The notes: generated by a model not told the origin, from the sequence alone. Shown: positions 32,841 to 38,333, numbered from the stretch's first letter. The stretch is DNA of 64,000 bases from Candidatus Aenigmatarchaeota archaeon (GCA_016198685.1 JACQID010000006.1:160001-224000), one strand, 5' to 3'. Numbers and translations are program-made.

Positions 32841-33026
32841 TTCCCGCAAGTTCAAATGACCGAGGCATATGCCTCAAACTGCCTGGCGCGGCGTAGAAGC
32901 GCAACGAGAGATGACTGAGAATGGGCGGCTGACTACTTATGTCAGCAGACGGTTTGACAATGATCTCGTAAAAGCTTATTCGTCAGGTAGATACAGCAGC
33001 ACTATGATGGATTTGCGGAAGTGGAA
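32841..33026 (+). other. 16S BHB intron 3 (186 nt, h43 region, E. coli position about 1362)
   Basis: Helix TCAT/GTGG with bulges CAT and AAT; splicing restores GGTCATCATCTTTCGCTGAATACG. Confidence 0.88.
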
Positions 33027-33411
33027 TCTTTCGCTGAATACGTCCCTGCTCCTTGCACACACCGCCCGTCAAGCCATCTGAGTGGAGTCTTGGTGAAGCC
33101 CATGACGAATGGGTCGAACCATGGTTCTGCAAGGAGGGCTAAGTCGTAACAAGGTAGCCGTACGGGAACGTGCGGCTGGATCACCTCCTATATATCTTTT
33201 GTGTTGCATTATGCCGCACTGATAGACTGCCAATTGCTTGCGCCTTCATTCGGATTTTTTATTGTATTAATTTCTCTACGCAAAGCGCTGTTCTCGGTAT
33301 AAGAAAAATACGTAGAATTGCGGTATATTATTTCGATTACACTGCATACTTATTGCAAAACTGAAATCATAAAATGACTAACAAATATGTTAACTGCCCG
33401 CGTATAGCTTA

Positions 33412-33705
33412 TTGGCACATCGAGTGTTATATGCAACTCATCCGAGCAAGGGTTGGTTTTGTAGGAATAATGAATTTCTAACACAATGGCCGTGTTTTTC
33501 TGAAGTTGTGGCACAAGAGCTTGGCATGCAAGAGTATTTTTCCTGCAACCCTATCGAGGGATTTGGCTTTATATTCGGGCATGTCTTAAATGAAGCGATG
33601 GACTTCCTTGCGCCTATCACATGTTTCTCCTGCGGATGGCAGAGCGAATCAGATCACGAGAAGAGATGCGAAATCTGCACGTCATGGCATGTTTATTTTG
33701 TGTAA
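33412..33705 (+). CDS. Possible zinc-ribbon hypothetical protein
   Basis: C-terminal CFSCG...CEIC; coding status uncertain. Confidence 0.35.
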   Translation: MAHRVLYATHPSKGWFCRNNEFLTQWPCFSEVVAQELGMQEYFSCNPIEGFGFIFGHVLNEAMDFLAPITCFSCGWQSESDHEKRCEICTSWHVYFV

Positions 33706-34296
33706 TCATACTTTCAGATAGACATAGCCCCTGCGTCTTGCGCGCTCATCGGTTACAAAATTTTCTCTTGTGATCACAAGTGCATTCGATAACTCGGACT
33801 TGAGAAGCACTAATGCCTGAGACGCATCCCGTTGTTCAAGCCCGGAACCGTATGCATATAATGGGCGCTGTTCTTCCATATCGGTTTCGATCAACAATTT
33901 CCCTCCCGCACGCAAATTCTTGCTGACAGCCGTTAGGACGGCATCAAGGGGATTATTATGGCAGTTCCGTTGGCGTTCCGACGTGATGATGTCCCATGGA
34001 TTCGGATATAGCCATGTTATTACGGGATATTCTTTGCGTGGCATATGAAAAGTATCATAGCCGTTAAAGGTCAGCATTTTGTTTTCATCCGTGAAATTTC
34101 CAGGGGCTTGGAGATCTACCCCATCGACATACAGCCATTCATCAGTTCCTGCTACCCGCCTGACTTGACATGATGTATTCCTTAGAGACCATCTATAAAC
34201 CGGAAGTTGTATGCCTCCTTGCTCTTTGGTCATTCGGTGATAGGTAGATCTGGGATTGACGTAAGTCATTCCCGCTCCTATGTCAAGTATATCCAT
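33706..34296 (-). CDS. Class I SAM-dependent methyltransferase-like protein
   Basis: ILDIGAG motif I, VDGVD, and KNLRAGGKLLIET. Confidence 0.6.
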   Translation of the reverse strand: MDILDIGAGMTYVNPRSTYHRMTKEQGGIQLPVYRWSLRNTSCQVRRVAGTDEWLYVDGVDLQAPGNFTDENKMLTFNGYDTFHMPRKEYPVITWLYPNPWDIITSERQRNCHNNPLDAVLTAVSKNLRAGGKLLIETDMEEQRPLYAYGSGLEQRDASQALVLLKSELSNALVITRENFVTDERARRRGYVYLKV

Positions 34297-34347
34297 GACA
34301 TGACAGAAGAGGGAAACGGCTAAAAAACCTGCAGTTGCTAGCGAAAC

Positions 34348-35113: not shown

Positions 35114-35248
35114 GGGCTGGTAGATCAACGGAAGATCGCCTGCTTTGCAACGCAAGAAGGGAAGTATCCCTCCTTACAGTCCTATTCAACTCTCGGACGA
35201 TGCGAACAAAACAGCAGGAGGCTTCGGGTTCAAATCCCGACCAGTCCA
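35114..35248 (+). tRNA. tRNA-Ala(TGC) with 63-nt intron at canonical 37/38 (35150-35212)
   Basis: GGGCTGG/CCAGTCC acceptor with G3-U70; CCTGC-TTTGCAA-GCAGG after splicing; helix TTTG/CAAA. Confidence 0.93.
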
Positions 35249-37815
35249 TCCGAAAGTGATTGTTAATCATTTTCTTCTCATTTTTATGCAGGATCAGCGG
35301 ATGCAAAAATCTTTTAATACTTTTTTGAAGTATGTTAGTTGTTGCGGGGTCAGGAATCCCGTGCTACTTAGTGAATGTCGCATACGCGACAGGATACAGG
35401 AAAGCTGATCAGAGCCAAGCAATAGGTTTTAGCAGAACCGTGCTTGCAGCATAAGGGGATGTTATTATCTATTCCGGTTCTGACTTGGCTTTCAAGGACG
35501 ATGACTAACGAATGTTAGTCGTCCGATGCTGAGGAAAAGTCATTCTGATGAAGGCGACCACAGGTCCGAAATAAAGATAGCTAGCTCCCACGCTATTTGG
35601 TGGATGGCTTGGCTTGGTAGCTGACGAAGGTCGTGGCAAGCTGCGATAAGCTCGGGGTAGGCGCATGCAGCCTTTGAACCCGAGATTACCTAATGTCGCA
35701 TAGACGTCAATTCACGGGCAACTGTGAAGAGCAACGGGGAGAATTGAAACATCTTAGTAACCCCAGGAAGAGAAAGCAATCGCGATGCCGTTAGTAAGGG
35801 CGACTGAAAGCGGCACAGGACAAACCGAATCTGTCCCGTAAGGAGACAGAGATGTGGAGTTTGGACCTGGGCTACTCCTATCCGTATATTTCGAAGTTCC
35901 CTGGAAAGGGACGCGACAAAGGGTGAAAGCCCCGTAGAAGGAAAACGGAGGAGGATACCGGGTATCCAGAGTACGATTGGCCGGATAGCCAGTCGGAATA
36001 CGGGTCTCATCTAGATCCAATCCTAAACACTAACCAAGTCCGATAGTGAATTAGTACTGCGAAGGAACGTTGAAAAGAATCCGTGACAGGATTTGAAAAG
36101 AGCCTGAAACCATGTAGCTATAGTTTGACGGTTAAGGCTCTCGCAAGAGAGAAGAACCCGTCGTCCGTTTGGAAAAACGGGGCAGGGAGTTATCTTCTAT
36201 GGCAAGCTTAACCGCATTAAGCGGGGAGGCGGAGCGAAAGCGAGTCTGAAAGGGCGACTAGTCATAGGAGTTAGACTTGATGCCAGATGATCTAGGCCTG
36301 GGTAGGATGAAGCCCCGCGAAAGCGGGGTCGAGGTCCGTAACCGGATTTAGCACTACCTAACCGGGTGACCTGGGTCTAGGGGTGAAAAGCCAATCGAAT
36401 CTGGCAGTAGCGGGTTCCTCCCGAAATGTATGTGAGTACAGCCTGGCAATGAGTGCGGATGGGGTAGAGCACTGATTAGACTGTCGAGGGGAGAAATCCC
36501 CAGCAGTTTTGTCAAACTCCGAATCCATCCGTATATGTGCCGGAGTGAGGGTGTCGGAGTAATTTTGGCATCCGAAAGGGAAAGAACCCTGACCAAAGCT
36601 AAGGTCCCTAATTAGAAACTAAGTGTATCGAAAGTTGTCTTGAACCTTAGACAGAGGGAAGGTTGGCTTAGAAGCAGCCATCCTCCAAGCAACGCGTAAT
36701 AGCGGACCCTCCGAGGTTCAGGGCGCTGAAAATGGACGGGGCTAAGTTTCTAACCGATACTTTGGAGCCTGCGCAAGCAGGTTGGTAGGGAGGCATACCG
36801 CGAGGGCAGAAGCTTCTCCGTGAGGAGGGGTGGACCTCGCGGCATAGAAAATCCTGCCGGGAGTAGCAAATGAGTTGGGTGAAAAACCCAACCGCCTAAA
36901 GAGCAAGGGTTCCCCAGTAAAGTTTATCTGCTGGGGGTTAGTCGGTCCTAACTGCACCCTTAAGAAGAGGTGTGGGAAAGGGAATCCGGTTAATATTCCG
37001 GAACCGAGCAGCAATGCACTTTTGGAAAAATTTCAGGACAGCCTGACCATTGCCGTCGCAATGGCGAAGCGTCGAAGCTTGAGGAGTCTCGTAATGAGGA
37101 GAATTAAGTGAAGGCGTTACAGGATCCCTGTATTGGGGTTTTAGGCCATTCCTGGAGTCCATGAAAAGCCAGAAGATTAGAGTGCTGCCGTCCGTACCGA
37201 GAACCGACACCGGTGCTCGCGCTGAGAAGGCGAAGGCGTACAGGAGAATCCAAACCTAGGGAATTCGGCAAAATAGTGGGGTATCTTTGGTAGAACCCAT
37301 GCCTGCCCAGTGATTGGGCAGGTCGCAGTAACAAGAGGGATCCGACTGTTTAACAAAAACGTATCTGGCTGCTAAATCGAAAGGTCTTGTATAGCCAGTG
37401 AGTCGTGGCCACTAGTGGTGTGTTAAAGCTGGTTTCAACCGGCCCAAGCCCCGCTGTAGGCCGGCCCTAACTCTGAGGGTCTTAAGGTAGCGTAATCCCT
37501 TGCCAACTAATTATTGGCCTGCATGATAGATTCACGAGATCTCTGCTGTCCCGGGGCGGAACCTGGCGAAACTATTGTTCTGGTGATTAGGCCAGAGACC
37601 TCTAGTGGGAAGAGTAGACCCCGTTGAGCTTTACTGCAGCTTGTTGTTGTGGTATAGATCTGGGTGTATAGCGTAAGCAGGAGACGTCGAAGCCTGCCCG
37701 AAAGGGTGGGTGGAGTCGCCAATGTAACACTGCTCATCTGGATCTATACAGCTTACCCGCGAGGGGACAGCAGCAGGCGGGCAGTTTGGCTGGGGCGGTA
37801 CGCCTTTGAAAAGAT

Positions 37816-37859
37816 ATCGAGCATAGCGTCGTATTAATCCTCGCGATGCTCGGCTTAAT
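37816..37859 (+). other. 23S BHB-type intron 1 (44 nt, H81 region near E. coli 2270)
   Basis: Stem TCGAGCAT/ATGCTCGG; relaxed helix AAAG/CTTA; splicing restores GAAAAGATATCAAAGG. Confidence 0.85.
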
Positions 37860-38066
37860 ATCAAAGGCCCTCTATGGTCAGCTCATCCGGGTCAGAAATC
37901 CGGAGATAGAATGTAAGGGTAAAAGCTGGCTTTATTGGACTTCGAAAAGCAAGATGTCCAATTGCGAAAGCATGACCTAGCGAAACGCAGTTCGGCCTAG
38001 ATGGCCGGCTGTGACTTGAGAAAAGCTACCTCGGGGATAATGGTGTCGTAGCGGGCGAGAGTTCTC

Positions 38067-38333
38067 ATCCGTATTGCGGTATCTAGTCTACATTAACCAC
38101 AAAGAAAAGAAAGCACTTAGCTGTCTTTATTAGGACAAGATATAGGCACGGCATTATTTGAGAATGCAAATTCTTGGATAATGCCAAAAACTTCTGGACT
38201 AACCAAGTGGCAGATGGCTGTGAAGGAACACTGTCCCAGAGCGAGTCCTCGAAAGGCTTACGTCTTTCGCAGGGCAATGAGCGCAATCGGTAGCTTCCGA
38301 GCCAATGTAAAAAATCTGCAGTGCGGAGAACAG
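38067..38333 (+). other. 23S BHB intron 2 (267 nt, H89 loop, after E. coli position about 2477)
   Basis: Perfect BHB: helix GTTC/GAAC, bulges TCA and AGA, 12-bp intron stem; splicing restores GAGAGTTCTCATCGACC. Confidence 0.92.

Follow-up and report, generated by a model that had tools for sequence, protein, structure and literature searches.

Ribosomal RNA introns of a Candidatus Aenigmatarchaeota archaeon as probable hosts of box C/D guide modules

Two introns in the rRNA genes of a reduced archaeal genome

The 16S and 23S ribosomal RNA (rRNA) genes in a 64,000-nucleotide (nt) stretch of DNA from a Candidatus Aenigmatarchaeota archaeon (GCA_016198685.1, JACQID010000006.1:160001-224000, referred to as the window) each carry a long intron of the bulge-helix-bulge (BHB) type, 186 nt and 267 nt in length respectively. 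Both introns are excised at their BHB sites, and each of them is, with good probability, a BHB intron that hosts box C/D guide modules aimed at the organism's own rRNAs. This reading rests on covarying helices and guides in the 16S intron and on the orthology of the module in the 23S intron with free-standing small RNA (sRNA) genes of related archaea.

The source genome (handle G000; the window is G000:C1:160001-224000) measures 0.93 Mb and is 94% complete, and groundwater metagenomes contain sequence of the source organism. For comparison we used 371 genomes of the phylum, which yielded a set of 18 introns at the 16S site including that of G000 (i.e., 17 homologues) and 15 homologues of the 23S intron. 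Positions in the rRNAs follow E. coli numbering by alignment to rrsH (16S) and rrlH (23S), and the nucleotide predicted to be methylated is taken as the one facing the fifth base upstream of box D or D' (the fifth-base rule).

Excision at BHB sites

The two rRNA genes and their long introns lie at the following positions in the window:
31410-33189 (+), 16S rRNA gene (Rfam model match)
35576-38738 (+), 23S rRNA gene (Rfam model match)
32841-33026 (+), 16S rRNA BHB intron, 186 nt, between positions 1363 and 1364 in the loop of helix 43 (h43) (cmscan insertion and BHB fold)
38067-38333 (+), 23S rRNA BHB intron, 267 nt, between positions 2477 and 2478 in the loop of helix 89 (H89) (cmscan insertion and BHB fold)

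The cmscan alignments place 188 extra bases in the h43 loop of the 16S rRNA and 269 in the H89 loop of the 23S rRNA. Folding of the flanks gives a canonical BHB at the 23S borders, with 3-nt bulges UCA and AGA flanking the 4-bp helix GUUC/GAAC, and a relaxed BHB at the 16S borders (UCAU/GUGG helix, AAU bulge, and a second bulge of 2-3 nt). With the limits set by cutting after the second bulge base, this folding arrives at the same intron limits as had been given by a first-pass annotation of the window.

The exact exon joints 32840/33027 and 38066/38334, which skip 186 and 267 nt, are present in RNA contigs from three runs (X13, X20, and X15) of two studies; these are assembled metatranscriptome contigs that bear on the exon joints, with only 29-36 nt on the shorter side of the joint. 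Neither joint was found in the best-matching DNA run (X1). Since the 16S intron is present in the DNA of all 18 family members in which both flanks are assembled (18/18), the joints in RNA are best read as the product of splicing. The splicing enzymes EndA and RtcB are encoded in G000, and neither intron encodes an endonuclease.

The rRNA genes of the family are crowded with introns at varying sites. A small 23S intron of 44 nt (37814-37857) is likewise skipped in RNA contigs of two runs, and a 55-nt 16S intron (32205-32262) contains kink-turn (K-turn)-like words, GUGAGAA and AUGAGAU, within a UUUAGU/ACUAAA stem. In G184 and G193 (loci L059 and L058) a further intron interrupts the GGGGAUAA segment, which lies a short way upstream of the H89 intron.

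Homologous introns are found at the identical 16S and 23S sites in every family member in which the rRNA flanks are assembled (exon-intron-exon matches by BLAST), and each of the two G000 introns is thus a member of a site-specific lineage. In the relatives their lengths range from 59 to 252 nt (16S) and from 84 to 405 nt (23S). When the introns were searched against the 371 genomes, BLAST matches were confined to the intron ends, which alone align, and to the family. The 16S intron of G182 (genus g7, L019) is almost identical to that of G184 (genus g8, L032) and holds the sole mismatch in guide B (described below); its contig may be mis-binned. The shortest 16S intron, that of G170 (59 nt, L026:1652-1710), consists only of basal stem, AUGAUU, an 8-nt spacer, GCAGCAC-G-AUGA, and stem, a minimal single-guide form.

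A double-guide box C/D sRNA in the 23S intron

The elements of the 23S intron and their predicted targets are as follows:
38068-38079 (+), 5' strand of the basal stem, pairing with 38316-38327 (fold)
38084-38132 (+), blocks GUCUAC and AGCUGUCUUUAU in the 5' half of the intron, kept in several introns at the site
38150-38185 (+), long hairpin with GCAA loop, the second GGCAT/ATGCC hairpin (fold; not seen in relatives)
38216-38303 (+), putative double-guide box C/D sRNA: stem GGC/GCC, boxes, and two guides
38220-38226 (+), box C, GUGAAGG
38230-38239 (+), D' guide ACUGUCCCAG, 10 bp including two G-U pairs with the 23S P-loop; fifth base faces G2251
38241-38244 (+), box D', GCGA
38245-38275 (+), hairpin between D' and C'
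38276-38282 (+), box C', AAUGAGC
38289-38296 (+), D guide GGUAGCUU, 8 bp with 23S 2434-2441; fifth base faces U2438
38297-38300 (+), box D, CCGA
37790-37799 (+), P-loop target CUGGGGCGGU, with G2251 at 37793
38023-38030 (+), target of the D guide AAGCUACC, with U2438 at 38027, 40 nt 5' of the intron

A pattern built on this unit (GTCCCAG-NNNGA...GGTAGCT-N-CYGA) is present in 13 of the 371 phylum genomes and in none of the reversed controls. It lies inside the H89 intron in G000, G170, G184, and G193, and outside the intron, on other contigs or 55 kb away, in nine genomes (G185, G187, G191, G192, G195, G196, G165, G219, and G220). The nine free-standing copies sit between open reading frames (ORFs) and have boxes RUGAAGA and CUGA, a GGC/GCC stem, and a 12-nt spacer from C to D', where the G000 unit has 14-nt spacers both from C to D' and from C' to D. 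As the same sRNA occurs as an intergenic gene in nine relatives, the intron module is orthologous to an ordinary sRNA gene. The geometry of the D' guide at the P-loop is identical in all orthologues (n = 12 other genomes), and GGGUAGCU of the D guide is kept; the base adjoining each D or D' box is variable while positions 2-9 are kept, as expected of C/D guides. On these comparative grounds the 23S intron holds a two-guide C/D sRNA, as predicted from its boxes and pairings, that is orthologous to free-standing sRNA genes.

A further phylum-wide pattern, GRYTTGACNNTGA, was too short for counting and was of use only through recurring exact 13-mers, and a loose pattern scan of the wider genome contigs returned matches that are nearly all bacterial and due to chance.

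A box C/D unit and three guides in the 16S intron

The 16S intron has a basal stem with an outer K-turn, inside which lies a second box C/D unit:
32844-32854 (+), 5' strand of the basal stem, pairing with 33008-33018 (fold)
32855-32859 (+), bulged strand of the outer K-turn, bulge AAU then GA (degenerate box C AAUGACC by sequence reading; AGAUGAUU in relatives)
32862-32875 (+), palindromic hairpin GAGGCAUAUGCCUC (GGCAT/ATGCC), a G000-specific insertion
32904-32969 (+), inner box C/D unit: closing helix ACGAGA/UCUCGU, 3-nt bulge GAU, GA against GA, and two guides
32911-32917 (+), box C of the inner unit, AUGACUG
32921-32928 (+), guide A AUGGGCGG, antisense to 16S 1399-1406 CCGCCCGU; fifth base upstream of D' faces C1403
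32929-32932 (+), box D', CUGA, doubling as the 5' strand of the hairpin 32928-32946
32951-32958 (+), guide B GGUUUGAC, antisense to 16S 1405-1412 GUCAAGCC; fifth base upstream of D faces A1408
32960-32963 (+), box D of the inner unit, AUGA, part of CAATGA
32996-33003 (+), guide C GCAGCACU, antisense to 16S helix 34 (h34); fifth base upstream of the box faces C1051
33004-33007 (+), outer box D, AUGA, directly 5' of the 3' strand of the basal stem
33008-33018 (+), 3' strand of the basal stem (fold)
33062-33075 (+), 16S targets of guides A and B CCGCCCGUCAAGCC, with C1403 at 33066 and A1408 at 33071, starting 36 nt 3' of the intron
32516-32523 (+), candidate h34 target of guide C AGUGCUGC, with C1051 at 32520

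Across the 18 introns, the most conserved 7-mers besides AUGA-type boxes are GCAGCAC (in guide C, 16/18), UGGGCGG (in guide A, 13/18), and GGUUUGA/GUUUGAC (9/18). Every conserved block stands directly before a NUGA box or one base off, and 16S rRNA contains a complement to each of the three that are most conserved apart from the boxes, for which we estimate a joint chance of about 1e-3. The distance from guide to box (guide, one base, NUGA) is strictly constant in 15-16 introns. Guide B maintains 7-8 pairs with its target in 14 genomes, and the pairing is restored where the target has changed: at position 1411, targets GUCAAGUC are matched by guides GAUUUGAC or GACUUGAC, so that G-C becomes A-U in all three such genomes (3/3), which belong to two genera. 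At position 1410, U.G, U-A, and C-G alternate.

The helices behave in the same manner. The basal stem homologous to that of G000 shows compensatory changes at 8 of 13 pairs in seven related introns, and the helix that closes the inner unit differs in nearly every genome while its bulge and GA/GA persist. Two layouts of the inner unit, related by circular permutation, are found: either guide A, hairpin, and guide B with a terminal helix, or guide B, D', hairpin, C', and guide A. In the permuted type, represented by seven introns (L002, L003, L004, L020, L028, L030, and L036), the hairpin closes the K-turn instead. For these seven, pairing in the basal stem and K-turn hairpin amounts to 90.5% of the cells and falls to 35-53% with the partners slid; compensatory changes are seen at 13 of 18 pairs, a number reached by none of 500 shuffles. 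D' is AUGA in four of the seven and degenerate in the other three. Judged from these alignments, both the helix closing the K-turn of the 16S unit and the predicted guide of that unit covary, the guide together with its target at 16S 1405-1412.

Other families also have guide B with a CUGA box, there as part of a free-standing C/D sRNA. These free-standing sRNAs (L217-L234; families f9, f13, f20, and others) have AGAUGAU followed, after about 5 nt, by GGCUUGAC-N-CUGA, i.e., the A1408 guide, and many of them carry a CAGAAC-type box and a second guide CCAGGUAAUGCGCC in front.

Guide C belongs to the outer K-turn adjoining the basal stem and is the weakest guide assignment, with 8 bp of pairing, a second match in 23S rRNA, and an invariant target. 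In the permuted-type introns a UUUUGGCG block, in which GGCG is invariant (7/7), follows right after the outer C-type box and may represent a fourth guide; G000 lacks it. We rejected a 12-bp match between 32874-32885 and 23S rRNA beside the P-loop, as by a hand estimate such a match is expected about once by chance and it is not conserved.

The two introns share a class of RNA, not a family

The first-pass annotation had proposed to unite the two introns in a single undescribed family of circular intron RNAs, carrying a structured RNA and/or a micropeptide encoded across the circle junction. Several of its observations stand. The motifs GGCAT/ATGCC, AAACT, CTGG, CTTAYGTC, GCAG, and CAATGA all occur in the order described in both introns; junction-crossing ORFs of near-equal size exist, with 58 aa (MPQT...YVSRR) and 60 aa (MPKT...YVFRR), having MP.T and YV.RR in common; and the description of both as endonuclease-free BHB introns with conservation at the RNA level is upheld. 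In addition, circularisation is known for archaeal BHB introns (Salgia et al., 2003, as cited in PMC3491384).

The proposed kinship is nevertheless not borne out, as the similarity between the introns is at chance level. Local alignment scores of 17 and 13 compare with shuffle means of 17.2 and 14.3, and the chain of collinear shared words between the two introns scores 66, where shuffles give 69 +/- 5 and comparison with 42 unrelated pieces of the window averages 67.7. Profile hidden Markov models of each lineage recovered their own members with E-values down to 1e-32 and found no match in the other lineage at E<=10. Of the shared motifs, CAATGA is box D with its preceding guide base in the 16S intron and box C' in the 23S intron, and in the 16S intron the GGCAT/ATGCC hairpin is specific to G000, an insertion at alignment columns where the other genomes have no letters.

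The micropeptide fares no better. Circle ORFs as long as those in G000 are reached in 9% of shuffles of each intron, and the longest circle ORFs in the 17 homologous 16S and 15 homologous 23S introns range from 0 to 76 aa, have no common start or motif, and are mostly within shuffle expectation. The G000 ORFs also pass straight across the guides and boxes, whose conservation is at the RNA level. We consequently attach almost no probability to a single circular-RNA family with a junction-spanning peptide. What unites the two introns is the class of RNA they carry, in both cases box C/D guide modules, which are of a known kind and here lie in rRNA introns.

Proposed mode of action and competing explanations

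The genome of G000 encodes fibrillarin and Nop5 (in adjacent genes), L7Ae, and Nop10. In the mode of action that we propose, L7Ae would bind the K-turns of the introns, and Nop5 and fibrillarin would assemble on them, either in cis on the pre-rRNA or after excision on the linear or circular RNA. The guides would then pair with nascent rRNA, and the fibrillarin complex is predicted to ribose-methylate G2251 and U2438 of the 23S rRNA and A1408 of the 16S rRNA, probably also C1403 and C1051. The pairings between guides and rRNA may also aid the folding of the decoding centre and of the peptidyl-transferase region.

Orthologues of the 23S unit have K-turn boxes RUGAAGA and CUGA, the 16S unit has a 6-bp helix, and the G000 boxes are variants of the consensus (RUGAUGA/CUGA). 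Spacers are 12 nt in the free-standing orthologues and in the permuted-type 16S introns. Those of G000 measure 11-14 nt rather than 12, and its D' boxes are degenerate (GCGA) or lie within a hairpin (CUGA).

Several points weigh against this reading. Beyond the spacers, the boxes are degenerate in both units (23S: C GUGAAGG, D CCGA, D' GCGA; 16S: C AUGACUG, D AUGA), and the stem of the outer K-turn is weak and non-canonical. For guides A and C the pairing amounts to just 7-8 bp; guide C has a further match in 23S rRNA at 37181, and its h34 target is invariant, so that co-variation cannot support it. Guide A selects C1403, whereas the methylated site in other organisms is C1402, and in G182 guide B has a C.A mismatch. 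Rfam searches at a permissive threshold gave only sub-threshold CD-box matches, which are not used here as evidence (snoR20 on the opposite strand, E 0.05; snoU61, E 6.4; sR44, E 1.8).

These deviations from consensus in boxes and spacers speak for an alternative without methylation, namely that the intron RNAs bind L7Ae at their K-turns and pair with rRNA only as folding chaperones in cis, or as an assembly checkpoint coupled to splicing. Such a role would also suit targets in the same transcript at distances of 36-45 nt from the splice sites, guides A and B that overlap on adjacent target segments, and a permuted type with only 8 nt between the CAGAAC-like box and D'. Against it stand the strictly kept step of guide, one base, and NUGA in 15-16 introns and the free-standing orthologues, in which the boxes are canonical and the spacer measures 12 nt. 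G2251 and A1408 have moreover been predicted before as C/D targets (PMC4644070), and fibrillarin and Nop5 are retained in a genome of 0.93 Mb. We therefore regard a purely chaperone-like role as improbable, although it is the most serious competitor of the guide-RNA reading.

Another possibility is that both are ORF-less BHB introns of a neutral or selfish nature, left over from homing-endonuclease introns, and that their C/D-like motifs and antisense blocks arose by chance. Dozens of chance matches of 9-12 bp indeed turn up in an antisense scan of a single sequence, and ORF-less rRNA introns are common in Thermoproteales (PMC4496867), but the covariation of the helices, the co-variation of guide and target, and the orthology with free-standing sRNA genes contradict this explanation, as does the conservation of internal blocks amid divergence elsewhere in the intron; we consider it very unlikely.

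An H/ACA-like module at the 23S site in relatives

In many relatives, reading by eye finds an H/ACA-like module in place of the C/D unit at the same 23S intron site (G187, G189, G175, G183, G176, G185, G188, G186, and G180; loci L051:1303-1510, L052:1268-1512, L055:1327-1508, L065:514-763, and others). It has a lower stem, pocket strands ACCCUCA and GUUAG, GA..GA in its upper part, and AUA 14-16 nt past the pocket. The upper stem covaries (CUGAU/AUCAG in some, CCAAU/AUUGG in others), again as read by eye. The pocket fits 23S CUAAC-UC-UGAGGGU and would select U1915 of helix 69. A loose search of G000 for this module gave noise only and no copy was found; Nop10 is encoded there, as mentioned above.

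Relation to known systems

The closest known arrangement is the box C/D sRNA in the intron of euryarchaeal pre-tRNA-Trp, described in Haloferax volcanii and as sR50 in Pyrococcus (Clouet d'Orval et al., 2001, via PMC7994747). As we propose for the present introns, a BHB intron there itself serves as a box C/D guide for the RNA that contains it. The difference lies in the host, which here is rRNA, with introns of 186 and 267 nt that are composite and comprise several guide units and other conserved blocks. Each intron is aimed at the rRNA that hosts it, the target sites being 36 to about 330 nt away.

In Nanoarchaeum equitans, a tRNA-Met intron contains a C/D sRNA, and a permuted circular sRNA24 links permutation of the box order to circular RNA (Randau, 2012, PMC3491384). 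The likeness extends to an intron-hosted C/D RNA in a reduced genome, and to the two circularly permuted layouts of the inner unit; the hosts are a tRNA intron or an intergenic gene there and an rRNA intron here. Dennis et al. (2015, PMC4644070) predicted as C/D targets 16S A1408 in N. equitans and in S. acidocaldarius, and 23S G2251 in three species. These are the same nucleotides as obtained here by the fifth-base rule, but the sRNAs of that study are encoded by free-standing genes, and the comparison covers the target sites.

Eukaryotic intronic small nucleolar RNAs (snoRNAs) are likewise guides for rRNA modification carried in introns of host genes, whereas the host here is a BHB intron within the target rRNA itself. 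The 16S and 23S introns of Thermoproteales and Desulfurococcales, which are ORF-less or encode homing endonucleases, are also BHB introns in conserved rRNA loops (PMC4496867). In contrast, those described here occupy sites 1363/1364 and 2477/2478, lack an endonuclease, and contain guide modules. A 2021 review of sRNA gene contexts lists tRNA introns and does not list rRNA introns. In the literature that we searched, hosting of C/D RNAs is described for tRNA introns only, and we found no report joining a box sRNA and an rRNA intron.

Implications

As a tentative and on balance rather doubtful generalization, the rRNA introns of these archaea might serve as a platform for modification guides, with C/D modules in both rRNAs and an H/ACA-like U1915 unit in relatives. 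Acting in cis on nascent pre-rRNA, such a platform could couple the modification and folding of the decoding centre and peptidyl-transferase region to splicing, and its modules might move between gene and intron and permute through circular RNA intermediates.

If each of the two introns hosts guide modules as we propose, a function, and a reason for retention, can be offered for the ORF-less rRNA introns that are abundant in small-genome archaea. The hosting of modification guides by archaeal introns would be extended from tRNA to rRNA introns, in parallel to intronic snoRNAs but by way of the tRNA-splicing machinery. As the same guide RNA is intronic in certain genomes and an independent gene elsewhere, the mobility of guide genes can be tested directly. 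For this uncultured archaeon, specific ribose methylations are predicted at the P-loop and at the decoding site.

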